A DNA stretch of 64,000 nucleotides from Arenicellales bacterium. Lineage in GTDB: Bacteria; Pseudomonadota; Gammaproteobacteria; Arenicellales; Poriferihabitantaceae. Shown piece by piece: positions 5,257 to 63,443 of this stretch. The notes below the pieces were generated by a model. It ran no database searches and was not told where the DNA came from. It was given only the letters and a program-made list of their open reading frames with translations. Numbering within the stretch: the first letter of the stretch is position 1; each line of letters starts with the position of its first letter. The stretch covers positions 2,573,617-2,637,616 of the forward strand of contig OY843749.1 in assembly GCA_963693025.1 (NCBI GenBank). The letters are read 5' to 3'. The position numbers were made by a program, and so were the translations under genes.

Positions 5257-5423
5257 GGGTTCTACGATGTGGTTTGGTGGTTTGAGCCGGGAATGAGTTC
5301 GCCGGGGAGGCGGGTTAATGTCATCCGCTCGGGCAATTTTTCAGGGCGGCTTTTATATCAAAAAGCGGGGTTTAACGCAACCCAATCACCCGCGACAGGC
5401 TGATGCGAAAAATCCCAACCACC

Positions 5424-5688
5424 CGTCATTCTCGAGCGTTAGTGTCCGTTGCCGCCGCGCTTTTTCTTTTAAGCGGCGGCTTACGGACACTTACGTCCTC
5501 GGGAATCTCCCTAAGACTGGCACGGGCTTTGTTGAAATTCACGGTAGCCTTAGGGAGATTCCCGAAGGCGATGAAAAATCCGCCCGGAGCGGATTTTCGC
5601 GTAGCCCGAAGGGTTTGTATCAGGGATGATACAAACAAAAATATGGTCGCCTAGCGGCTCCCTATTTTTCTATCGTTCGAGAATGACG
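5424..5688 (+). mobile_element. MITE-like TIR element, long form (265 bp, with nested about 57-bp module)
   Basis: Left end CGTCATTCTCGAGCG at 5424 and right end CGTTCGAGAATGACG at 5674-5688 (15-bp TIR, 1 mismatch). Hairpin 1: GTGTCCGT..GCCGCCGC / GCGGCGGC..ACGGACAC. Hairpin 2: GGGAATCTCCCTAAG / CTTAGGGAGATTCCC. Confidence 0.85.
5580..5636 (+). repeat. Nested two-hairpin mini-module inside the MITE
   Basis: CCGCCCGGAGCGGATTTTCGCGTAGCCCGAAGGGTTTGTATCAGGGATGATACAAAC is absent from short-form copies. It is flanked by AAAAAT on both sides. Confidence 0.75.
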
Positions 5689-7769: not shown

Positions 7770-7973
7770 ATGGCGACAGGCACTGTAAAGTGGTTTAACG
7801 AATCCAAAGGTTTTGGGTTTATCTCTCAAACAGATGGCGGTGCGGACGTATTCGTCCATTTCCGCGCAATCGAAGGCACGGGGTTTAAAACCTTGCGCGA
7901 AGGTCAGGCAGTCACCTTTGAGGTGGAGGAAGGTCCCAAGGGCCTTCAAGCGACCAGCGTTACCCCCGCTTGA
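7770..7973 (+). CDS. cspA: Cold-shock protein, CspA family
   Basis: 67 aa, [20 protein letters not shown]...VFVHF, containing the RNP1 and RNP2 motifs. Confidence 0.93.
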
Positions 7974-8007
7974 ATCCAATCGGCGCGTAAAATCGCCGAT
8001 AACACAG

Positions 8008-8034
8008 CGCCCCGCTTCGGCGGGGCTCTTTTTT
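8008..8034 (+). terminator. Rho-independent terminator after csp gene
   Basis: GCCCCGC-TTCG-GCGGGGC followed by TCTTTTTT. Confidence 0.7.
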
Positions 8035-8082
8035 GCACGGCTGAATCGGAGCCGGAAGTCGGGATTCGCAACCGCGCCCGAT

Positions 8083-8994
8083 TTACCCTCGGCCGCGCGT
8101 TCTCGTCCGTTGCGGCTTGGCGTGGTTTTCGATGAATTGAATGATCATGTCGGCGACATCCTTGCCGGTCGCTTTCTCGATGCCTTCCATCCCCGGCGAG
8201 GAGTTGACCTCCATCACCAGCGGTCCCCGGTCCGAGCGCAGCAAATCCACCCCGCACAGGTTAAGCCCCATCGCTTTGGCCGCCTTGACCGCGGTCTTGC
8301 GCTCGGTGGGCGTCAGTTTAATCAGCCGCGCGGTGCCGCCGCGGTGAAGGTTGGAGCGAAATTCCCCCGGCGGCGCCTGGCGCTGCATCGCGGCGATGAC
8401 CTTGTCGCCGACCACCAGACAGCGCAGGTCGCTACCGCCCGCCTCTTGGATGAATTCCTGCACGAGAATGTCCGCCTTGATGCGCATGAACGCCTGGATG
8501 ACGCTCTCCGCCGCCTTGCGGGTTTCGGCAAGCACCACGCCCTTGCCTTGCGTGCCTTCGAGCAGTTTGATGACCAGCGGCGCGCCGCCGACCTCGTTGA
8601 TGATGCCCTGAATGTCCTTGACCGAGTGGGCGAATGCGGTGGTCGGCAGCCCCAGCCCTTTGCGCGACAGCAGTTGCAATGAGCGCAGTTTGTCGCGCGA
8701 GCGGGTAATCGCCACCGACTCGTTGACGCTGTAAATGTTCATCATCTCAAACTGGCGCACGATGGCGGTGCCGTAGAAAGTCGCGGACGCCCCGATGCGC
8801 GGAATGACCGCGTCAAAATCTTCGGCGGCGAACTCCATGTCGCCGTAGTGTATGCTGGGTTTGTCGGAGGTGATGTCCATAAAACAACGCAGGTGGTCGA
8901 GCACCTCGACGACATGCCCGCGCCGCTCGGCCGCTTCGACCAGCCGCCGAGTGGAATAGAGCCGCTGATTGCGCGACAGCACCGCTATTTTCAT
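8083..8994 (-). CDS. rimK: Ribosomal protein S6 L-glutamate ligase (ATP-grasp)
   Basis: 303 aa beginning [30 protein letters not shown]-grasp fold with RimK-like length and motifs. Confidence 0.92.
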
Positions 8995-9039
8995 AACAAC
9001 TTTCCGCCGGGTTGATGACAGTCGGGGTTGGGGTGTCCG

Positions 9040-9492
9040 CTAGGTTTCAAGGCGCGGCTCTCCGGCAAGGTATGACCGCCCCGGATTGACATTGAATGTT
9101 TTCATAATGGCGGTGCGCCCCAGCAGCATCCGAAACTTCATCGAGTTGCGGTTGGTGAGGGTGATTTCAATCTCCTTGTTGAACGCGCCAATCACCACCG
9201 GCGTGCGGATGACCACCCGGTTTTCCTTGCCGCCGCCGGAGTTGGTCACCCACCGGCTTTCAACAATATCGGCGACGCATTGGTTGCCGGGTCCCCGCTC
9301 GCCCTTGGCCGTAAACAACTCAAAGCGAACCCGGCGCACCCCGCCCTCGTCAAATTCCTCCATCCACACGGTATCCAACGCCGAAGTCCGCGCCCCGGTA
9401 TCCACCTTGGCCCGAATCCGCCCAACCCCAAGCCCCGGCAACGCCACCCACTCACGCCATCCGAGCAAAGGTTTGGGTTTTCGGGTGGTCAT
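9040..9492 (-). CDS. Retropepsin-like / DUF785 putative protease commonly paired with rimK
   Basis: 150 aa containing AKVDTGARTSAL, an aspartic-protease-like DTG motif. Lies immediately upstream of rimK on the same strand. Confidence 0.7.
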   Translation of the reverse strand: MTTRKPKPLLGWREWVALPGLGVGRIRAKVDTGARTSALDTVWMEEFDEGGVRRVRFELFTAKGERGPGNQCVADIVESRWVTNSGGGKENRVVIRTPVVIGAFNKEIEITLTNRNSMKFRMLLGRTAIMKTFNVNPGRSYLAGEPRLET

Positions 9493-9513
9493 TGGCAGGC
9501 GAGTTGATTAATC

Positions 9514-10857
9514 TCAGCCCCCACCGCCGAGATAACTCTCCATCGAATCGTCCATCGCCTCAAGCCACGGCGTGTGATGCGCCGGTTGCATGTTTCCGCT
9601 CATCAGCGAGCGGTAGGCGTTGTTGCGAAACCCCATGATGTCTTCGTGTTTGTGGTGCTCCCATTGCATGAAGGTTTGGTTGACCGCCTCGACATCGAAA
9701 CTCGGATAATCGGTCGGCTCAAGCAACTCCTTCACGTAGTCGCCCTGAAACCAAATCATCTGCTCGTCGTTCTCCAATGTTTCTTCGCGCCGCCGCCACG
9801 CCGCGCTGTGTTTGCGCATCTCATCGAGCGCCGGCAGGCTGAGCCGCCCGAGCATGTAATCGCGCGCATACCACGCCTGCGCGTCGAACATGTTGAAAGT
9901 GTAAAACTGGTCCTGCATTCCGAGATACATCAGTTTCGGATTGTCCTCCCAGAAAACTCCCTTATACAAATTCAACGGCCACAGCCGGTTGGTGGTTTGC
10001 AATCGCAACGCATCCGGCAAGAACGGAAAGTGGTGCAAGTAACCGGTGCACAGGATAATCGCGTCAACCTCCGCGCTCGTGCCATCTTTGAAGGTCGCGG
10101 TGTTGCCGTCCACCGAAGTCAACAGCGGCACTTCCCGCCAGTTGTCGGGCCAGTGAAAACCCATCGGCGCGGTGCGGTGACTGCAGGTTATCGACTTCGC
10201 GCCATACTTGTAGCACTGCGAGCCAATGTCCTCGGCGGAATAACTGGTGCCGATAATCAGGATGTCCTTGCCCTTGAACTCAAGCGCATCGCGGAAGTCA
10301 TGCGCGTGCAACACGCGACCGTTGAAGGTGTCGAAGCCGGCGAAGTGCGGCGCGTTGGGCACCGAAAAATGCCCGTTGGCAACCACCACATAGTCAAACT
10401 CTTCGCTCGACACCGCGTCATTTTTCAGGTCGTGCGCGGTGACCGTAAACCGCCCGCTGTCATCCGCATAAGCAACCTCGCGCACCGCCGTGCCAAGCCG
10501 CATATAACGGCGCACATCCGCCTTCTTCACGCGGCCAAGCAGATAGTCGGCGAGCACCGCGCGCGGCGGATAGGAGGCAATCGGTCTGCCAAAGTGCTGC
10601 TCAAACGTATAGTCGGCGAACTCCAAACACTCCTTGGGCCCGTTCGACCAAAGATAGCGGTACATACTGCAATGCACCGGCTCGCCAAACTCGTCCAACC
10701 CGGTGCGCCAGGTGTAATTCCACAAGCCGCCCGGCTCGCTCTGTTTTTCATAACAAACAATGTCGGGAACCTCCGCCCCGCTTTCCCCGGCGGCGGCAAA
10801 CGCACACAACTGCGAAATCCCGCAAGGTCCCGCGCCGATGATTGCAACTCGAGTCAT
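9514..10857 (-). CDS. tmm: Flavin-containing monooxygenase, trimethylamine monooxygenase-like
   Basis: 447 aa. Dinucleotide sites IIGAGPCG and [10 protein letters not shown], plus the FMO motif [11 protein letters not shown]. Neighbours a tdm-like gene. Confidence 0.85.
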
Positions 10858-14160: not shown

Positions 14161-14361
14161 CGTCATTCTCGAGCGTTAGTGTCCGTTTGTCGCCGCGCTT
14201 TTTCTTTTAAGCGGCGGCTTACGGACACTTGCGTCCTCGGGAATCTCCCTAAGATTGGCACGGGCTTTGTTGAAATTCACGGTAGCCTTAGGGAGATTCC
14301 CGAAGGTGATGAAAAATATAGTCGCTGCCGCTCCTTATTTTTCTATCATTCGAGAATGACG
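14161..14361 (+). mobile_element. MITE-like TIR element, short form (201 bp)
   Basis: Left end CGTCATTCTCGAGCG at 14161 and right-end variant CATTCGAGAATGACG at 14347-14361. Both hairpins are present. Confidence 0.85.
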
Positions 14362-14606
14362 AAGTGGTGGGGAATGACGAGTGTGGTTGAATGGTGGGTG
14401 TGGGTTGAAACTCGGGTTGCTTGCGCTGTTTTTGGGCGTAATCGCTTGATTACACTAACTTTTCCAATCCCACACAAAACAAATCCCCCCTCACCCAGCC
14501 CGGAATTGAGTTGCGGAGAGGGCGGGGCGGTTGTAGTATTGGGGGTGATACCAACGAGGTCCGGCTGTTTTCGGGGGCGGCTCGGACGAGAACGGAGGAG
14601 AACGCG

Positions 14607-29258: not shown

Positions 29259-29301
29259 CAAAAACACCCAACAAAAACCACAACCTCGAAAACAACAACT
29301 T

Positions 29302-29512
29302 CGTCATTCTCGAGCGTTAGTGTCCGTTAGTCGCCGCGCTTTTTCTTTTAAGCGGCGGCTTACGGACACTTACGACCTCGGGAATCTCCCTAAGATTGGC
29401 ACGGACTTGAACAAAGCCGTTGCGAGCTCAGCGCCAACCTTATGGAGATTCCCGAATCGAAGAAAATATGGTCGCCTAACGGCTCCCTATTTTCTACCGT
29501 TCGAGAATGACG
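29302..29512 (+). mobile_element. MITE-like TIR element (211 bp, divergent hairpin-2 loop)
   Basis: CGTCATTCTCGAGCG at 29302 and CGTTCGAGAATGACG at 29498-29512. The right arm of hairpin 2 is CTTATGGAGATTCCC. Confidence 0.85.
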
Positions 29513-29521
29513 GGCATAACT

Positions 29522-29718
29522 CGTCATTCTCGAGCGTTAGTGACCGTTGGCCGCCGCGCTTCTTCTTGCGGCGGCTTACGGACACTTGCGTCCTCGGGAA
29601 TCTCCCTAAGACTGGCACGGGCTTTGTTGGAATTCACGGTAGCCTTAGGGAGATTCCCGAAGGCGATGAAAAATATAGTCGCTGGCGCTCCTTATTTTTC
29701 TATCGTTCGAGAATGACG
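29522..29718 (+). mobile_element. MITE-like TIR element, short form (197 bp)
   Basis: CGTCATTCTCGAGCG at 29522 and CGTTCGAGAATGACG at 29704-29718. Separated from the preceding copy by GGCATAACT. Confidence 0.85.
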
Positions 29719-29728
29719 GGGTTGGGGA

Positions 29729-38981: not shown

Positions 38982-39178
38982 CGTCATTCTCGAGCGTTAG
39001 TGACCGTTGCCGCCGCGCTTCTTCTTTTAAGCGGCGGCTTACGGACACTTGCGTCCTCGGGAATCTCCCTAAGATTGGCACGGGCTTTGTTGAAATTCAC
39101 GGTAGCCTTAGGGAGATTCCCGAAGCGAAGAAAATATGGTCGCTGACGCTCCCTATTTTCTACCGTTCGAGAATGACG
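38982..39178 (+). mobile_element. MITE-like TIR element, short form (197 bp)
   Basis: CGTCATTCTCGAGCG at 38982 and CGTTCGAGAATGACG at 39164-39178. Spacer to the previous copy is GGTATTTATAACT. Confidence 0.85.
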
Positions 39179-39261
39179 GGGTTGTTGTTTTTGGTTTGTT
39201 ATTTTTGGTTTGTTGTTTGTTGCTGGTTTGTTTTATGTTTGTCGTTAGGCAGTAAGAAACA

Positions 39262-42210: not shown

Positions 42211-43662
42211 ATGAGCACTACCGAAAGAGACCTGGCGACGCTGGTTCAGCGTGAATACAAAGAAGGTTTTGTGACCGACATCGACGCCGACACGCTGCCG
42301 CCCGGCTTGGATGAAGATGTCATCCGCGCCATTTCATCCAAGAAGGGCGAGCCTGAATTTATGCTTGAATGGCGACTGGAAGCGTATCGGCGCTGGCTTG
42401 CGATGGCGCAGCCGCAGTGGGCGCAAGTGCACTATCCGCCCATCGATTATCAAGCCATCAGTTACTACTCCGCGCCCAAGCAGGTAGAGTTGCTGGACAG
42501 CCTCGACGAAGTCGACCCGAAACTGCTCGAGACTTACGAAAAACTCGGTATTCCCATCGACGAGCAGAAGACGCTGGCGGGCGTCAAGGTGGCGGTGGAT
42601 GCGGTGTTTGACAGCGTGTCGGTGGCGACCACTTTCAAGAAAACGCTGTCCGAAGCGGGCGTGATTTTTTGTTCGTTCTCCGAGGCGGTCGCGGATTTTC
42701 CCGAACTGGTGCGACGCTATCTCGGCTCGGTGGTGCCGCCGGGCGACAATTATTACGCGGCGTTGAACTCGGCGGTGTTCAGCGACGGCTCATTCGTCTA
42801 TATCCCCAAGGGCGTGCGCTGCCCAATGGAATTGTCCACCTACTTCCGCATCAACGCGATGAACACCGGGCAGTTTGAGCGCACGCTAATCGTCGCCGAC
42901 GAGGACAGTTATGTCAGTTACCTCGAAGGATGCACCGCGCCGATGCGCGATGAAAATCAGTTGCACGCGGCGGTGGTTGAACTAGTGGCGATGAAGGGCG
43001 CGCAGATTAAATATTCCACGGTGCAGAACTGGTATCCCGGCGACGAGCAGGGCAGGGGGGGGATTTACAACTTCGTCACCAAGCGCGGCGCGTGCCGCGG
43101 GGATGGCGCCAAGATTTCATGGACGCAAGTGGAAACCGGCTCGGCAATCACCTGGAAATATCCCAGCGTGCTGCTCGAAGGCGACAACTCCATCGGCGAG
43201 TTCTACTCGGTGGCGCTGACCAACAACTACCAACAAGCCGACACCGGCACCAAGATGGTGCACATCGGCAAGAACACCGGCAGCACCATCATCTCCAAAG
43301 GCATCTCCGCGGGCCATGGCCAGAACGCCTACCGCGGCCTGGTCAAAGTAATCGCCGGCGCCGAAAACGCGCGCAACTATTCGCAATGCGACTCGCTCCT
43401 GATGGGCGACCAATGCGGCGCGCACACCTACCCCTACATGGAAATCAAAAACCCAACCGCCGTAGTAGAACACGAAGCCACCACCTCCCGCATAGGCGAA
43501 GACCAGTTGTTCTACTGCCGCCAACGCGGTCTGTCGGAAGAGGATGCGTTGTCGATGATTGTCAATGGGTTTTGTAAGGAAGTGTTTAAGGAGTTGCCGA
43601 TGGAGTTTGCGGTTGAAGCGCAGAAGTTGCTGGGGATTAGTTTGGAGGGGGCGGTGGGGTGA
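42211..43662 (+). CDS. sufB: Fe-S cluster assembly scaffold SufB
   Basis: 483 aa. ...[13 protein letters not shown]... and ...[24 protein letters not shown]... are typical of SufB. Confidence 0.95.
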
Positions 43663-43695
43663 TGGGTTTCTTAACGCGACCAACAACAACAACGC

Positions 43696-43893
43696 CGTCA
43701 TTCTCGAGCGTTAGTGTCCGTTGCCGCCGCGCTTTTTCTTTTGCGGCGGCTTACCGGACACTTGCGTCCTCGGGAATCTCCCTAAGGTTGGCACGGTCTT
43801 TGTTGGAGTCCACGGTAGCCTTATGGAGATTCCCGAATCGAAGAAAATATGGTCGCCTGTCGGCTCCCTATTTTCTACCGTTCGAGAATGACG
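43696..43893 (+). mobile_element. MITE-like TIR element, short form (198 bp)
   Basis: CGTCATTCTCGAGCG at 43696 and CGTTCGAGAATGACG at 43879-43893. Lies directly after the sufB stop. Confidence 0.85.
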
Positions 43894-44004
43894 GGGTTGT
43901 GGAATTTGTGATGGAGGGTGGGAGTTGTTTGTTTAGTTTGGATGGGGCGGTTGGTTAGCGACCGCGTGATTGTTATTTTTGCTTCGACATCAAGAGAGAA
44001 AACG

Positions 44005-44976
44005 ATGGCTTATACATTTTTAAATTTAGCGCGTGATGTGCTGAAAGACGCACCTACCCCGCTTGCCTATGTTGAAATCTGGGAACAAGCAAAACAGAGC
44101 GGATTGGCTCAGAAACTCAACACGCAAGGCGCGACACCGCAGGCGACGCTGGGTGCAAGGCTCTCAACTGATATTCTTCACAACAAAGATGACTCGATAT
44201 TTGTTCGAATTGGCAGGAGACCGCAACGATATTTTTTGAAAAACCGTTTGCACGAAATCGATGCGAACGCCATACCCAAATTAGATGAATTGAATGGTGC
44301 AACTACTGCGAAAACAGTAGGCTATGAGGAAAAAGACTTACACCCGCTACTGGCATATTTTGCATATACCAACGATAACTTTTCGGGGCAAAGGCAAATT
44401 TACACCAAAACGATCAAGCACCAAAGGACGAGGGTGAGAGCACTCAGGGAGTGGTTGCATCCTGATATGGTGGGCGTATATTTTCCTTTTGAAGACTTGG
44501 AAAAAAGCGTAATTAAGTTGAGCGGATCTCTTAATTCCAACTCCGTTTTTCAACTGTTCTCGTTTGAATTAAAACGAAGCATAGACAGAGGCAATTACCG
44601 AGAATATTTTTTCCAAGCGGTGTCAAATTCATCCTGGGCGCATGAAGGCTATCTTGTGGCCGCGGAAATATCGGGAGACGATGAACTCCGAAGAGAACTC
44701 GGGCGGCTCACCAATGCATTTGGTATCGGTGTGATTCATTTGAACGTTAAAGACATCGCCGCTTCCGACGTGCTATTCAGGGCGAGCACTAAAGCAGAAT
44801 TGGACTGGGAGACGATTAACAAGTTATGCACGGTGAACGAAGATTTTGCGTCGTTTATTAATCGGCTGAACACCGATTTTGGCGCAGGCCAAATTCATCA
44901 AACAGAATACGATGCGATTATTACGGACCCGGCCACTTATGTTCGGGAGAAACTTAAAATAGATGCGGTTGAATAA
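44005..44976 (+). CDS. HARE-HTH-like winged-helix domain fused to PD-(D/E)xK-like nuclease domain (uncharacterised)
   Basis: 323 aa from MAYTFLNLARDVL. The N-terminal about 80 aa (TPQATLGARLSTDILHNKDDSIFVRIGRRPQRYFLK) fit the HARE-HTH pattern. The C-terminal half has EEKDLHP / WLHPDMVGVYF / LFSFELKRS, which is E...PD...ExK spacing. AT-rich relative to the flanks. Confidence 0.6.
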   Translation: MAYTFLNLARDVLKDAPTPLAYVEIWEQAKQSGLAQKLNTQGATPQATLGARLSTDILHNKDDSIFVRIGRRPQRYFLKNRLHEIDANAIPKLDELNGATTAKTVGYEEKDLHPLLAYFAYTNDNFSGQRQIYTKTIKHQRTRVRALREWLHPDMVGVYFPFEDLEKSVIKLSGSLNSNSVFQLFSFELKRSIDRGNYREYFFQAVSNSSWAHEGYLVAAEISGDDELRRELGRLTNAFGIGVIHLNVKDIAASDVLFRASTKAELDWETINKLCTVNEDFASFINRLNTDFGAGQIHQTEYDAIITDPATYVREKLKIDAVE

Positions 44977-44997: not shown

Positions 44998-45135
44998 ATG
45001 CTAACCATCAAAAACCTACACGCCACCGTCGACGACAAACCCATCCTCAACGGCATCAACCTCACCATCAAAGCCGGTGAAATCCACGCCGTTATGGGTC
45101 CCAACGGCTCCGGCAAAAGCACGCCGGCAAGGTGA
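44998..45135 (+). pseudogene. sufC: sufC 5-prime fragment, copy 1 (45 codons then TGA)
   Basis: [42 protein letters not shown] then PAR*. Homology to sufC (47728) ends at about 45128. Confidence 0.9.
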
Positions 45136-45145
45136 AGCGTAAAAA

Positions 45146-45997
45146 ATGAAAACCATAGCCACAATTAATTTCAAGGGCGGGGTCGGCAAGACCACCACTA
45201 CTTGGTGTTTGGGGGATGTGTTGTCAACGCAGCCAAATTCGACTGTGTTGCTGGTCGACTTGGATGCGCAAGCATCGCTGACTGATTCTCTGGCGCTTCT
45301 GACTGATATTGATGACTTTCGATACTGGAAAGAAGCAAGAGAAACAAACGCTCAAACAACATTTGCGGTGCTGCAAAAATTCTTAACGGCGGAAAAAGGG
45401 TTTGATTTTCAACCCGGCGACAACTACATCTACAAATTGAAAGAAGGGTTTCATTTCATTCCTTCCACCGCCGACCTGTATTGGATGAGTTTAAATTCTT
45501 TTGACCCTGAAAAGGGAAGAGTGTTTGTCAGGCGTTTGCTTGAGAAAATCGAAAACTCCGCTGACCTGCCAAAATATGACTATGTTATTTTTGACTGTCC
45601 GCCATCGTTCACAACGCTCTCTTACAGCGTTTGCACCTGTTGCGATTTGATTTTGTTGCCGGTCAATCCGGACTTTTTTGCGGCGCGAGGTGTTGAAATA
45701 CTGCTAACCGGGCTCAAAGAACGAATTGAAGCGCGCCCGCTGCCGCAGGTGGCAGTTTTTGCAAACCGGGTAAAAACTTGGCGGCGGCCGACAAAATTAT
45801 CGAGACAATGGATTGCTGATGTGCAGGATGCTTGCGCAGAGATGAGGAGCAGATGGGGCATTGATGTGCGTTATCTGGACGCGTGGATCCCGGACCGCGC
45901 CGCGATACGCGATGCGATACCAAGCCGCAATACCCCGCGCAGACATTTTCGTGATTTCATCAATCTTTGGGAAGAAGCGGGAGGTAAATTGAAATGA
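45146..45997 (+). CDS. ParA/Soj-family ATPase (283 aa)
   Basis: Deviant Walker A INFKGGVGKTTTT, LLVDLDAQAS, and Walker B DYVIFDCPPS. The start lies 10 nt after the stop of sufC fragment 1. Confidence 0.85.
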   Translation: MKTIATINFKGGVGKTTTTWCLGDVLSTQPNSTVLLVDLDAQASLTDSLALLTDIDDFRYWKEARETNAQTTFAVLQKFLTAEKGFDFQPGDNYIYKLKEGFHFIPSTADLYWMSLNSFDPEKGRVFVRRLLEKIENSADLPKYDYVIFDCPPSFTTLSYSVCTCCDLILLPVNPDFFAARGVEILLTGLKERIEARPLPQVAVFANRVKTWRRPTKLSRQWIADVQDACAEMRSRWGIDVRYLDAWIPDRAAIRDAIPSRNTPRRHFRDFINLWEEAGGKLK

Positions 45998-46482
45998 CAG
46001 ATGACAATTTTTGGGGTGACAAAGCGGAATACATTCAGAAGTTAGCCAGTGAGGTGGCTGGGCTGAAGGGCGTGGTGCAAGATGTTTCACAACAAATCAG
46101 GCGCATTGAGCGGCGCATTGATTTAGTCCTGCCCGAAAAGCCCCGGGAAAAAGGGCGAAAGACCCCCGTCAACGGCGGGCGTCGCCCGGCGAAAGCGCCG
46201 ACCATGAGTGAAATCGAAGCGCGTCAAACCATTAAAAGGTTGACGGATAAACTTCACGAGCGCGGCACGATGGAATCCGTTCAAGCGGAATTGCGCAGTA
46301 TGACGGTGAAGCATGGACTGACACCCATCGCGCGCGAGTTGGGCATGACCAACACCGCGCTGCCGCCCAAGACCGAACTGGTGCTGAACATCATCACCCG
46401 GCTCCGCCAAAGCGTAATGCTGACCGAAAACATCCGTAAGATGTCCCGCGTTGCCGAAGAGGAAGAACATTTTGGAAACTAA
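45994..46482 (+). CDS. Hypothetical 162-aa protein, translationally coupled to the ParA-like gene
   Basis: ATGA overlap with the upstream gene. It has an N-terminal coiled-coil-like segment, a basic linker ([23 protein letters not shown]) and a C-terminal segment ([38 protein letters not shown]) resembling a helix-extension-helix (SAP/Rho-N-like) motif. No family recognised. Confidence 0.55.
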
Positions 46483-46486
46483 CCCC

Positions 46487-46672
46487 ATGCTAACCATCAA
46501 AAACCTACACGCCAACGTCGACGACAAACCCATCCTCAACGGCATCAACCTCACCATCAACGCCGGTGAAATCCACGCCGTTATGGGTCCCAATGGCTCC
46601 GGAAAAAGCACGCTGGCGAATGTGCTGGTGGAGCGCGGCCAGTATGAGGTGAGCGGTGGGGCGAGCCAATGA
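46487..46672 (+). pseudogene. sufC: sufC 5-prime fragment, copy 2 (61 codons then TGA)
   Basis: [58 protein letters not shown] then ASQ*. Its stop overlaps the cytochrome c ATG (ATGA at 46669). Confidence 0.9.
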
Positions 46673-47127
46673 AAAAGCGGACAACTATCGGTCTGACCGC
46701 CGTGCTTGTCGCGCTCGGCGCCGGTCTTTTTGTTTTCCGCGGCGGAAGTTCCCCGGAAAATCCGAGTGCCGTTGGCGGGCGGTGGTATTCAGCGGCGATG
46801 GTTTCCTCCGGCGCGCGTATATTTGCGGCGAATTGCGCTTCCTGTCATGGCGCGTCCGGCGAAGGCGCGGCGAATTGGCAACTGCGCGGCGCCGACGGTT
46901 TTTTCCCGCCGCCGCCGCTCAACGGCAGCGGCCATACCTGGCACCATCCACTGAGCGCGTTGCGCGCCACCATTGAGCGCGGCGGCACCGCTTTCGGCGG
47001 CAAAATGCCGGCGTTCAAGGGGCAACTCGACCGCCGCCGGCAAGACGCCGTCATCGCCTATATCCAGAGCCTCTGGCCCAGCGCAATCTACACGGCATGG
47101 GCGCAACAAATCGAACGCATTAATTGA
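46669..47127 (+). CDS. Mono-heme c-type cytochrome with N-terminal signal/anchor
   Basis: 152 aa. Hydrophobic N-terminus [18 protein letters not shown], heme motif CASCH, distal Met candidate GGKMPAF. Confidence 0.8.
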
Positions 47128-47152
47128 TGCGGCATCTTTTTGCTTAACTGTG

Positions 47153-47701
47153 ATGAAAGACACCAAAGAAAAACTATCGCCGCTTAGCGTCGCGTTGCAC
47201 TGGACGGTCGGCCTCTTTGTGATCGCCATGCTCGCGCTCGGTTTGGCGATGGAATCCTATGAGTTGTTTTTCCTATACCCGGTTCACAAGTCCATCGGCA
47301 TTTTATTGTTCGTTGTGATTGTATGGCGCGTATACTGGCGTTTGTTCAACGGCTGGTTGCCGCCGCTTGGAAATTACCCGCATTGGCGGCGGATGTTGGC
47401 GCGCGCTTCGCATTGGGTTTTACTTGCCGGCACATTGTGGATGCCGTTATCGGGGATGCTGATGTCCGCGCTCGGCGGGAGCGGATTGACGGTGTTCGGC
47501 ATTGCGTTGCTGGCGGCGAACCGCGACGCCAACGGCAAGATAATCGCTTACAACGAGTCGCTGGCGCATTTTGCGCACACGCTGCATGCGCTCGGCGGTA
47601 AAATTTTAATCGCGGTGATTACGCTGCATGTTTGCGCGGCGCTTCATCATCATTTCATTGAAAAAGACAACGTGCTGCGCAGAATGCTGGCGCGCCTTTA
47701 A
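47153..47701 (+). CDS. Cytochrome b561 family membrane protein (CybB-like)
   Basis: 182 aa with 4 predicted TM segments and conserved His positions (SVALHW, PVHKSIG, ASHWVLL, HTLHALG...HHHFIEKDNVLRRM). Start chosen at ATG 47153. Confidence 0.78.
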   Translation: MKDTKEKLSPLSVALHWTVGLFVIAMLALGLAMESYELFFLYPVHKSIGILLFVVIVWRVYWRLFNGWLPPLGNYPHWRRMLARASHWVLLAGTLWMPLSGMLMSALGGSGLTVFGIALLAANRDANGKIIAYNESLAHFAHTLHALGGKILIAVITLHVCAALHHHFIEKDNVLRRMLARL

Positions 47702-47721
47702 CCTGAAACTTAACCTGAAAC
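47698..47721 (+). repeat. Perfect 12-bp tandem duplication TTAACCTGAAAC x2 at the cassette/sufC junction
   Basis: Read directly. It spans the cytochrome b561 stop and ends 6 nt before the sufC ATG. It contains the GAAACT(T)AACC motif shared by the leaders of all three sufC copies. Confidence 0.85.
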
Positions 47722-47727
47722 CGAAAA

Positions 47728-48483
47728 ATGCTAACTATCAAAAACCTATCCGCCAACGTCGACGGCAAGCCCATCCTCAACGGCATCAACCTTGAAATAA
47801 AAGCCGGCGAAATCCACGCCGTTATGGGTCCCAACGGCTCCGGTAAAAGCACGCTGGCGAATGTGTTGGCGGGGCGGGAAGGGTATGAAGTGACCGGCGG
47901 AAAGGTGCGGTATAAGGAGCGGGATTTGCTGGAGATGGCGCCGGAGATTCGGGCGCGGGAGGGGGTGTTTTTGGCGTTTCAGTATCCGGTTGAGATTCCG
48001 GGGGTGACCAATCTTTACTTGCTCAAGGCGTCGCTCAATGCGATTCGCAAGCATCGTGGCGATGACGAGTTGAACGCGGTGGAGTTTCTTAAACTGATTA
48101 AGGAAAAGGCCGCGCTGGTGAAAATGAGCGAGGAGTTTTTGTATCGCTCGATTAACGAAGGCTTTTCCGGCGGCGAGAAAAAGCGCAACGAGATTTTGCA
48201 GATGGCGCTGCTTGAGCCGACCTTGAGCGTGCTCGATGAAACCGATTCGGGGCTGGACATAGACGCGCTGAAAGTCGTCGCCGACGGCGTCAACACGTTG
48301 CGCGGCGACGACCGCGCGATGCTGGTGGTGACGCATTACCAACGCTTGCTGGACTACATCGTGCCGGACTTCGTGCATGTGCTGCACGGCGGGCGCATCG
48401 TGCGCTCCGGCGACAAATCGCTGGCGCTGGAACTGGAGCGCGAGGGCTACGGCTGGCTGGCGGAGCAGGCGGCGGCGCCATGA
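47728..48483 (+). CDS. sufC: Fe-S cluster assembly ATPase SufC (intact copy)
   Basis: 251 aa. Walker [10 protein letters not shown], signature FSGGEKKR, Walker B LSVLDETDSGLD. Confidence 0.95.
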   Translation: MLTIKNLSANVDGKPILNGINLEIKAGEIHAVMGPNGSGKSTLANVLAGREGYEVTGGKVRYKERDLLEMAPEIRAREGVFLAFQYPVEIPGVTNLYLLKASLNAIRKHRGDDELNAVEFLKLIKEKAALVKMSEEFLYRSINEGFSGGEKKRNEILQMALLEPTLSVLDETDSGLDIDALKVVADGVNTLRGDDRAMLVVTHYQRLLDYIVPDFVHVLHGGRIVRSGDKSLALELEREGYGWLAEQAAAP

Positions 48484-57045: not shown

Positions 57046-57063
57046 CCTCGTCATTCACCACTT
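57046..57063 (-). repeat. Stutter copy of the MITE outer terminus
   Basis: cctcgtcattcaccactt immediately precedes cctcgtcattctcgaatg. Confidence 0.65.
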
Positions 57064-57066
57064 CCT

Positions 57067-57266
57067 CGTCATTCTCGAATGATAGAAAAATAAGGAGCGA
57101 CAGCGACTATATTTTTCATCACCTTCGGGAATCTCCCTAAGGCTACCGTGAATTTTACCGAAGCCCGTGCCAACCTGAGGGAGATTCCCGAGGACGCAAG
57201 TGTCCGTAAGCCGCCGCTTAAAAGAAGAAGCGCGGCGGCAACGGACACTAACGCTCGAGAATGACG
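57067..57266 (-). mobile_element. MITE-like TIR element, short form (200 bp), reverse
   Basis: CGTCATTCTCGAATG at 57067 and CGCTCGAGAATGACG at 57252-57266. Confidence 0.85.
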
Positions 57267-62980: not shown

Positions 62981-63180
62981 CGTCATTCTCGAGCGTTAGT
63001 GTCCGTTGCCGCCGCGCTTTTTCTTTTAAGCGGCGGCTTACGGACACTTACGTCCTCGGGAATCTCCCTAAGACTGGCACAGGCTTCGCCAAAGTCCACG
63101 CTAGCCTTAGGGAGATTCCCGAAGGCGATGAAAAATATGGTCGCTAGCGCTCCCTATTTTTCTATCGTTCGAGAATGACG
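62981..63180 (+). mobile_element. MITE-like TIR element, short form (200 bp)
   Basis: CGTCATTCTCGAGCG at 62981 and CGTTCGAGAATGACG at 63166-63180. Confidence 0.85.
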
Positions 63181-63190
63181 AAGTTGGGGG

Positions 63191-63232: not shown

Positions 63233-63433
63233 CGTCATTCTCGAGCGTTAGTGTCCGTTGCCGCCGCGCTTTTTCTTTAAGCGGCGGCTTACGGACACTT
63301 GCGTCCTCGGGAATCTCCCTAAGACTGGCACGGGCTTTGTTGGAATTCACGGTAGCCTTAGGGAGATTCCCGAAGGCGATGAAAAATATGGTCGCCTGTC
63401 GGCTCCCTATTTTTCTATCGTTCGAGAATGACG
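63233..63433 (+). mobile_element. MITE-like TIR element, short form (201 bp)
   Basis: CGTCATTCTCGAGCG at 63233 and CGTTCGAGAATGACG at 63419-63433. Confidence 0.85.
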
Positions 63434-63443
63434 GGCTTTTTGT

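Follow-up and report, generated by a model that had tools for sequence, protein, structure and literature searches.

The 64,000-nucleotide window analysed here (contig OY843749.1 of the Arenicellales bacterium assembly GCA_963693025.1, positions 2,573,617 to 2,637,616 of the forward strand) contains, between the genes sufB and sufC, two overlapping genes coding for a ParA/MinD-class ATPase and a small partner protein. ParA/MinD partners define what their ATPases move, and many are still 'orphans'. The two genes were found to form a conserved two-gene unit with obligate pairing, which is exchanged horizontally between strains and species. A ParA/MinD ATPase with an adjacent partner is a known kind of system; new in this case are the family to which the partner belongs and the way in which the pair spreads. 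The pair consists of the following genes.

45146..45997, plus strand: ParA/MinD-class ATPase of 283 amino acids (aa), assigned from Pfam matches and motifs
45994..46482, plus strand: cognate partner of 162 aa, a conserved family without a database family above threshold

The ATG of the 162-aa gene (45994-45996) overlaps the TGA of the ParA-like gene (45995-45997) in the sequence ATGA, and both the six-frame list of open reading frames (ORFs) and the sequence itself agree with the first-pass annotation, made on the letters of this DNA, in this respect. A scan for promoters and terminators at the locus returned nothing above chance.

The ParA-Like ATPase

The 283-aa protein has the full set of catalytic motifs of a ParA/MinD ATPase. 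The three motifs from which a ParA/Soj assignment had initially been made are all present, namely KGGVGKTT (residues 10-17), VDLDAQ (37-42) and DYVIFDCPPS (145-154), and were joined by two Pfam matches over cut-off, to AAA_31 (1.9e-29, 103 bits, cut-off 27) and to CbiA (1.7e-11, 44.6 bits, cut-off 25.4). They comprise a deviant Walker A motif with the signature lysine Lys10, a Walker A' motif (DLD, 38-40) and a Walker B motif (FD149). The deviant Walker A motif NFKGGVGKTT (residues 8-17) is invariant in 118 members of the ParA subfamily, across which DLDAQ and FDCPPS are also conserved. The cysteines 21, 151, 166 and 230 are likewise invariant in these 118 members, and C165 is retained in 79%.

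PHROG 164, 'ParA-like partition protein', matches the ATPase at 2.8e-34, and the match to the NCBIfam model ParA_partition is under its cut-off. The nearest solved structures are those of Soj (6iub and 1wcv, E-value ~1e-13); a relationship to the ParF structure 4dzz is detectable (E 1.2e-6), and the McdA structures 6non and 6noo are weak relatives. The subfamily contains more than 120 proteins at 50% identity or above and 1200 at E-values of 1e-10 or below. With the window ATPase, the best plasmid ParAs share less than 30% identity. Judged by these comparisons to PDB and plasmid ParA sequences, the subfamily is distinct from other ParAs. In PADLOC-DB 2.0, the sole match of the ATPase was restricted to the P-loop and was to the candidate system PDC-M28B (E 1.7e-4).

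The Partner Protein

For the partner, no family over threshold was identified in Pfam, NCBIfam, PADLOC or PHROGs, and no sequence-profile match was obtained in the PDB. It represents a previously undescribed, unannotated family without a Pfam entry. A word-indexed search revealed 43 homologues of 123-176 aa with identities of 43-99%, and an exhaustive search with a hidden Markov model (HMM) of 1.84 billion representatives revealed 125 clusters at 50% identity, all of them 50-270 aa in length. None of them contains an additional Pfam domain, the longer members included.

In the alignment of the family, two conserved blocks surround a variable, indel-rich linker. Invariant residues include L17, E20, Q34, R37, E39, R40, R41, L46 and P47 and, further along, L100, L109, A113, R114, G117, T119, P124, K126, L129, I133, R136 and Q139. 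The protein is built from an acidic tail (residues 1-13), a coiled coil (14-45), a basic disordered linker (48-72) and a helical C-terminal domain (73-159). The coiled coil shows a perfect 3-4 heptad pattern over 4.5 heptads, and its a and d positions are 100% hydrophobic in 37 of 37 homologues. R36, R37, E39, R40 and R41 lie at b, c, e, f and g positions exposed on its surface; of these, R37, E39, R40 and R41 are invariant and make up an RxERR face. The linker has a net charge of +6, with a family mean of +4.1. The C-terminal domain, which is predicted with confidence, is characterised by the motif L-x3-IAR-x-LGMT-x4-PPK-x-EL-x3-I-x-R and by the conserved basic residues R101, K106, R114, K126, R136 and R138. 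The AlphaFold2 model predicts a helix at 6-45, disorder at 46-72, helices at 73-88, 93-102 and 105-115, a 10-residue loop and a helix at 126-159, with a confidence (pLDDT) of 75 for the full-length protein and of 84, with a predicted TM-score (pTM) of 0.73, for residues 68-162 alone.

A three-part build with a heptad-like N-terminus, a basic linker and a C-terminus resembling helix-extension-helix (HeH) motifs had been proposed for this protein. The first two parts stand, and for the third all matches obtained are sub-threshold. Rho_N is found below threshold in 19 of 37 close members (best E 0.007), where DUF2730 is ahead with 29 of 37, and it is the top Pfam family in a remote set (24 of 100 members, best E 0.0016, again sub-threshold). 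It is the most frequent non-coiled-coil Pfam match in these two independent sets, with its cut-off of 24.9 bits unreached. The SAP and SAP_new25 models match nine members in all, also below threshold, and the matches to DUF2730 and other coiled-coil families are confined to the heptad region. In the model, the helix 105-115, the 10-residue extended loop and the helix 126-159 have a predicted geometry compatible with a helix-extension-helix.

Pairing and Genomic Contexts

All ORFs of 32 loci were scanned with the HMMs of both proteins. Wherever a locus included the DNA upstream, the small gene directly followed the ParA-like gene, with L023 as the sole exception, and the pair is usually translationally coupled. 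The partner gene of L014 had been overlooked by gene callers and was recovered by the HMM scan. In L023, ParA has lost its body by deletion; what remains, the last ~27 codons, is joined in frame to a sufC relic, and the partner is intact. The L023 region (8831-10004) contains an orthologous HARE-HTH (helix-turn-helix) gene and a 57-codon ORF, in which sufC codons 1-30 are joined to the last ~27 codons of ParA.

In metagenome-assembled genomes (MAGs) of Ca. Poriferihabitaceae/Spongiihabitans, the gene order is iscR-sufB-ParA-partner-sufC-sufD-sufT-Rieske-murA. The genes are tightly packed, with the sufB stop overlapping the ParA start or lying at most 29 nucleotides (nt) before it, and with the sufC start following the partner stop at a distance of 4-5 nt. 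SufC relics, a nuclease gene and cytochrome genes are missing here. The window sufB is 94% identical to that of these MAGs, which makes an origin of the window in this family most probable. In the distant loci L025 (555-4608) and L026, an extra 164-aa ORF lies ahead of sufC.

The pair was also identified at six chromosomal sites outside the suf operon, often beside restriction or defence genes.

L007: pair after a resistance-nodulation-division (RND) pump
L014: pair followed by a GmrSD/HEC-05-like gene, which overlaps the partner stop with its start
L016: pair before a type III restriction-modification system
L021: pair with an rRNA operon on one side and a type I methylase, a GHKL ATPase and a PDC-S60-like phosphoesterase on the other
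L029: pair beside an insertion sequence (IS) element
L031: pair beside ordinary genes

In L014 (7864-9935), the GmrSD/DUF262-type gene (PADLOC PDC-M55C 1.8e-52, HEC-05) starts 4 nt before the partner stop and may be co-expressed with the pair. In L021, the sequence 'ggtaATGCT' after the partner stop (10481-10490) agrees with sufC in spacing and in its first bases, a weak hint that this copy may have retained a vestige of an origin from the suf site. The contigs carrying the pair are 0.2-5.7 Mb in size and have housekeeping flanks.

A three-gene locus together with the adjacent HARE nuclease gene had also been considered. Among ~16 distinct contexts, a HARE homologue was found with the pair in the window and in L023 only, and a three-gene system was rejected for this reason.

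Composition, Selection, and Exchange

The G+C content at third codon positions (GC3) is 0.37-0.64 for ParA (also given as 0.37-0.55) and 0.46-0.74 for the partner in 10 of 10 genomes, far under the values of the flanks (0.58-0.93), and marks the pair as foreign. In the window, ParA has a GC3 of 0.51, compared to 0.75-0.77 in sufB and sufC. The ratio of nonsynonymous to synonymous substitution rates (dN/dS) is 0.09-0.27 in ParA and 0.11-0.19 in the partner gene. These values resemble those of sufC and show purifying selection on both genes. The possibility that the small ORF is non-conserved or non-coding was not borne out, since it is conserved, with the 43 homologues mentioned above and these dN/dS values.

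Exchange of the pair was identified by comparing loci of different strains and species. The proteins of the strains L001 and L015 are 100% (SufB) and 98% (SufD) identical, compared to 60% for ParA and 89% for the partner, with a synonymous divergence (dS) of 0.06 for sufB/sufC, 1.18 for ParA and 0.43 for the partner gene. The breakpoints are sharp: identity falls ~60 nt into ParA, just past the Walker A codons, and recovers ~140 nt into the partner gene, so that the recombinant block consists of ParA and the first ~47 codons of the partner. L019 and L020 come from different sponge-symbiont species, with 70-89% nt identity in sufB/sufC, and share a ~750-nt ParA segment that is 100% identical. 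Both (at 9200-10000 each) contain the same 1-nt ParA frameshift, and the adjacent partner gene is just 57-69% identical. This shared frameshift may truly exist in the genomes or may reflect a homopolymer error; an intact version of ParA is present in L005, which stems from the sample that also yielded L020.

The trees of ParA and partner are incongruent with one another and with those of host genes. The allele swaps, the identical segment and the discordant trees show that recent, repeated, gene-sized recombination has occurred between lineages. With respect to a co-variation of ParA with the N-terminus of the partner, an identical ParA stands beside a divergent partner in L019 and L020, and the comparison is confounded by physical linkage.

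The sufB-sufC Insertion Hot Spot

The gap between sufB and sufC is an integrase-free insertion hot spot in sponge-symbiont Gammaproteobacteria, among them Ca. Poriferihabitaceae/Spongiihabitans. In the window, the pair is surrounded by the following features.

42211..43662, plus strand: sufB, left border of the hot spot
44005..44976, plus strand: HARE-HTH gene with an uncharacterised C-terminal part (PF05066, 1.1e-11; GC 0.45), a neighbouring cassette outside the pair
44998..45135, plus strand: sufC 5' relic 1, a 45-codon ORF (tblastn to sufC residues 1-44, 89%)
46487..46672, plus strand: sufC 5' relic 2 (sufC similarity to ~46660), the native sufC 5' end of the window lineage
46669..47701, plus strand: cassette of cytochrome c (46669-47127) and cytochrome b561 (47153-47701), inserted in the sufC 5' end
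47728..48483, plus strand: intact sufC, with the third copy of the sufC 5' end in the window

The presence of sufC 5' relics on both sides of the pair, as described in the first-pass annotation, was confirmed at 44998-45135 and 46487-~46660. A PADLOC search with the HARE-HTH protein gave no match. The inserts between sufB and ParA differ among the loci.

Window and L023: HARE-HTH gene
L010, a second gammaproteobacterial lineage: four additional, unknown genes
L013: 76-aa ORF
L022: ~165-aa membrane ORF
Window and L032: repeats resembling miniature inverted-repeat transposable elements (MITEs)

Relic 1 has retained the start and the Walker A codons of sufC, and its stop lies 10 nt ahead of the ParA ATG. 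It is ~96% identical to relic 2 and 86-88% identical to the true sufC 5' end. Relic 2 starts 5 nt past the partner stop, with the same spacing as in the relatives, and its own stop overlaps the cytochrome c ATG (ATGA at 46669).

The sister strain L032, in which ParA and partner are 99% identical to those of the window, has the order sufB, MITEs, relic, cytochrome c-cytochrome b561, ParA-partner, sufC. Here, the cytochrome cassette is on the opposite side of the pair (7855-9152, compared to 46487-47900 in the window), is present as a divergent allele (81% nt identity, cytochrome b 49% aa identity) and has at its flank a 39-nt duplication that covers the Walker A codons of sufC. The last ~45 nt of relic 1 are kept upstream of ParA in L032, and relic 1 is also common to L023. 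Positions 45090-46659 of the window form one block of 97.3% identity with L032 9097-10666, where relic 2 corresponds to the intact sufC start. The functional sufC of the window is 85-86% identical to the relics and to the L032 start over its first ~173 nt, and 97% identical to L032 in the remainder.

A native relic 2 combined with a foreign 5' end of sufC fits the product of a single crossover. We infer that an incoming segment composed of a sufC 5' fragment, cytochrome c and cytochrome b561 recombined with the chromosomal sufC by a single crossover of the Campbell or ends-in type. Such an event would leave a truncated native sufC copy on the left and a restored sufC with a foreign 5' end on the right. 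For relic 1, two origins may be considered: a segment of ParA, partner and sufC 5' end could have arrived in an ancestor with the order sufB-HARE-sufC, or a flank-anchored illegitimate join could have taken place. The pair itself would have arrived by single-crossover or flank-anchored homologous recombination via the sufC 5' and sufB 3' ends.

The end points of the relics vary (nt 135, ~175-246, and the 39-nt duplication in L032), and no integrase or other recombinase is encoded in or near any of the cassettes, which argues against a site-specific recombinase. The dusA-specific islands and the tycheposon arrays found at tRNA genes enter the end of a gene, for which they bring a replacement copy. 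Like these, the window has tandem cargo units between partial copies of the target gene, with the incoming copy restoring the target. The lack of a recombinase near the cassettes and the varying relic ends are differences to both, and they point to homologous or microhomology recombination rather than to a fixed att site.

Both relics are still open reading frames feeding the next gene. From its sequence, relic 1 can serve as a leader ORF for the pair, and truncated sufC 5' copies may in general act as leader ORFs for the cargo. The locus documents gene-sized DNA moving between symbiont species inside sponges; it indicates that an essential, highly conserved operon is able to serve as a recombinase-free landing pad, and that truncated starts of the target gene may be recycled for the translational coupling of cargo.

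Comparison to Partition Loci and Other ParA/MinD Systems

Among 72,556 plasmids (PLSDB), 50,697 phages (INPHARED) and IMG/VR, no homologue of the partner was identified. A repeat search of the window revealed no iterated repeats flanking or inside the pair, so that the reported lack of centromere-like repeats around the pair holds, and no repeats were found around the pair in six other loci with intergenic space. A scan of third codon positions revealed no zone of suppressed synonymous change inside the pair. With regard to a ribbon-helix-helix (RHH) protein, the model of the partner contains helices only and no beta strand, and no RHH family was matched in Pfam or NCBIfam. For a ParB protein with ParB/Srx and HTH domains, no family match was found in Pfam, NCBIfam or the PDB. 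The view that the partner is not ParB-, ParG- or RHH-like is thus upheld by the profile searches and by the all-helical model. A type Ib plasmid par locus was rejected as an identity for the pair on the basis of its chromosomal contexts, the lack of iterons, a partner that is not RHH and plasmid ParAs of less than 30% identity. The suggestion of a partition module of a decayed plasmid-like element fell likewise, in view of the missing plasmid, phage and IMG/VR homologues and of the purifying selection.

The type Ib par loci (ParF/ParG of TP228 and delta/omega of pSM19035) share with the pair a ParA-class ATPase lacking an N-terminal HTH domain and a small, translationally coupled partner gene. 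In contrast to these, the partner of the window is predicted to be all-helical rather than RHH, iterons are missing, the pair is chromosomal and absent from PLSDB, and the ATPase is ~70 residues longer. Soj/ParA-Spo0J/ParB-parS is the system to which the closest solved structures of the ATPase (6iub, 1wcv) belong; unlike there, the partner is without ParB/Srx and HTH domains, no parS was found, and the pair is accessory and horizontally exchanged.

The ParA-Shi pair from ICEclc, an integrative and conjugative element (ICE), also consists of a KGGVGKT ParA and an adjacent small non-ParB protein on horizontally moving DNA (PMC6812849). ICEclc ParA and Shi were reported to interact, to sit on the nucleoid and to arrest host division, with no centromere target (PMC6812849). 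Among systems in which a ParA and a small non-ParB partner lie on mobile DNA, this one comes nearest in function. Compared by description, the two systems differ in that Shi was described as distantly HicA-like (PMC6812849), a similarity which the window partner does not show, and in that no ICE genes were found in any of the 32 loci.

In McdA/McdB, ParC/ParP and PomZ/PomXY, an adjacent, fast-evolving, charged and partly disordered coiled-coil partner is present as well (PMC10241942). Unlike in these systems, no carboxysome, chemotaxis or flagellar cargo genes lie near the window pair, the window ATPase has the signature lysine, and the N-terminal tail of the partner is acidic. Our literature search found nothing relevant on ParA proteins encoded within suf operons or belonging to defence systems.

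Proposed Function and Alternatives

ParA/MinD ATPases form ATP-sandwich dimers that bind the nucleoid or the membrane, and their partners are encoded adjacently, are highly diverse and contact the ATPase by a charged N-terminal stretch (PMC10241942). We tentatively favour, at a strength that leaves ample room for other accounts, that the pair is a ParA/MinD ATPase with a novel cognate adaptor, forming a minimal DNA-tethering or nucleoid-acting, horizontally exchanged accessory module. This comes closest to the 'two-gene ATPase-adaptor system of unknown role', which is the best fit among the three readings originally offered for the locus, the partner being conserved, coupled and not ParB. ParA would form an ATP-sandwich dimer on the nucleoid, and the partner would dimerise through its 4.5-heptad coiled coil. 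It may contact ParA and trigger the ATPase via R36, R37, E39, R40, R41 and the basic linker. The linker and the helical C-terminal domain, with six conserved basic residues and a Rho_N/SAP-like HeH motif, are predicted to bind nucleic acid. The target of the pair would be DNA rather than a protein organelle; DNA appears likeliest because no protein cargo genes travel with the pair. The module is accessory, probably selfish, and would be expressed by read-through within the suf operon with no role in Fe-S assembly. In the partner, a compact, conserved and unannotated family with a clear, testable design has been identified.

Several observations weigh against this proposal. The ParA-partner interaction and the DNA binding by the partner are predictions from sequence and model. 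The extreme N-terminus of the partner is acidic, whereas that of most known partners is basic. For the HeH similarity, a curated threshold was reached nowhere, hhalign of the partner against E. coli Rho 1-67 gave the expected register with a probability of 1.8%, and Foldseek searches returned no match in the PDB (full-length and C-terminal-domain models) or among the viral folds of BFVD. With no iterons and no suppressed synonymous change, a specific DNA site is unsupported. ParA is frameshifted or deleted in some genomes, which shows that the module is dispensable. Finally, in the distant loci L025 and L026 the pair lies between a sufB (71% aa identity) and a sufC (59% aa identity), a position hard to explain by flank-homology recombination, and this leaves room for a functional link to Suf.

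A serious alternative, to which we assign a clearly lower probability, is a conflict or addiction module: a selfish growth-arrest, addiction, anti-plasmid or anti-phage system by analogy with ParA-Shi, whose allele diversity would be maintained by frequency-dependent selection. The deep allele diversity in near-identical backgrounds and the transfer between species would be expected of such a module, as would the low GC. Restriction or defence neighbours are frequent (L014, L016, L021 with the PDC-S60-like nuclease, and HARE-HTH in the window and L023), and decay loses the ATPase first and keeps the small gene (L023 and L006/L019/L020). ParA-Shi itself provides a precedent (PMC6812849). However, neither protein belongs to a PADLOC family beyond the P-loop match of the ATPase, the partner having no match among the defence models of PADLOC-DB 2.0, and a constant third gene or effector is missing. 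L001, L003, L005, L007 and L031 are among many loci without a defence neighbour, and the all-helical partner model differs from Shi, reported as distantly HicA-like. If a growth-arrest or defence role were true, a ParA-based class would be added to the bacterial conflict systems.

A wider formulation, which combines function and spread, is possible but doubtful. The pair would be a selfish or conflict module whose partner has a fold not seen before and whose target is either invading DNA or the nucleoid of the host. It would spread among sponge symbionts living together without a recombinase of its own, entering the essential suf operon via the conserved sufB 3' and sufC 5' ends, with sufC starts re-used as leader ORFs; the same site would gather further integrase-free cassettes, such as those of HARE-HTH and cytochrome c/b561.

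SIMIBI ATPases which serve metal centres include Mrp/ApbC/NBP35, NifH and CooC. In line with this, ATPase and partner might be lineage-specific helpers of the SufBCD scaffold, which we regard as unlikely. Two features speak for such an Fe-S accessory role: in four or more lineages, among them the distant L025 and L026, the pair is tightly packed into the sufB-sufC gap, and four cysteines are invariant in the ParA subfamily. However, the pair occurs in six non-suf contexts, its GC3 is far from that of the suf genes, its alleles are swapped independently of suf, and ParA is frameshifted or deleted while suf is intact. In addition, the match to PF10609 (NUBPL/Mrp) has 21.7 bits, under the cut-off of 27.1, and covers residues 3-41, the P-loop, only, and the ATPase is without a CxxC cluster-binding motif. 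An Fe-S role was rejected as the principal explanation on three grounds, namely the loci outside suf, the swapping of alleles and the base composition.

Least probable of all is a functionless, decayed relic of a type Ib partition locus from a plasmid, ICE or prophage, as suggested by the ParA fold, the small downstream gene, the foreign GC and the PHROG 164 match, since purifying selection acts on the two genes in over 100 clusters, plasmid, phage or viral-contig homologues are missing, and neither other mobile-element genes nor a centromere lie alongside.

MITE-Like Repeats

A MITE-like repeat of ~210 bp with 26-nt inverted ends occurs 10 times or more in the 64-kb window and four times in L032, where three of the four are arranged in tandem 3' of sufB. 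Examples from the window are listed below.

43689-43905, 38982-39193, 63233-63438, 29291-29514, 29522-29728 and 14161-14370: MITE-like repeat copies
57058-57266, 62981-63189 and 5416-5577: further copies

Just past the MITE-like insertion that follows sufB, the 3' end of that gene is repeated as a short relic at 43933-43958 (FSLDGAVG*, compared to ...ISLEGAVG* in sufB). Because this relic lies beyond it, the MITE-like insertion is also bracketed by a duplicated gene end.

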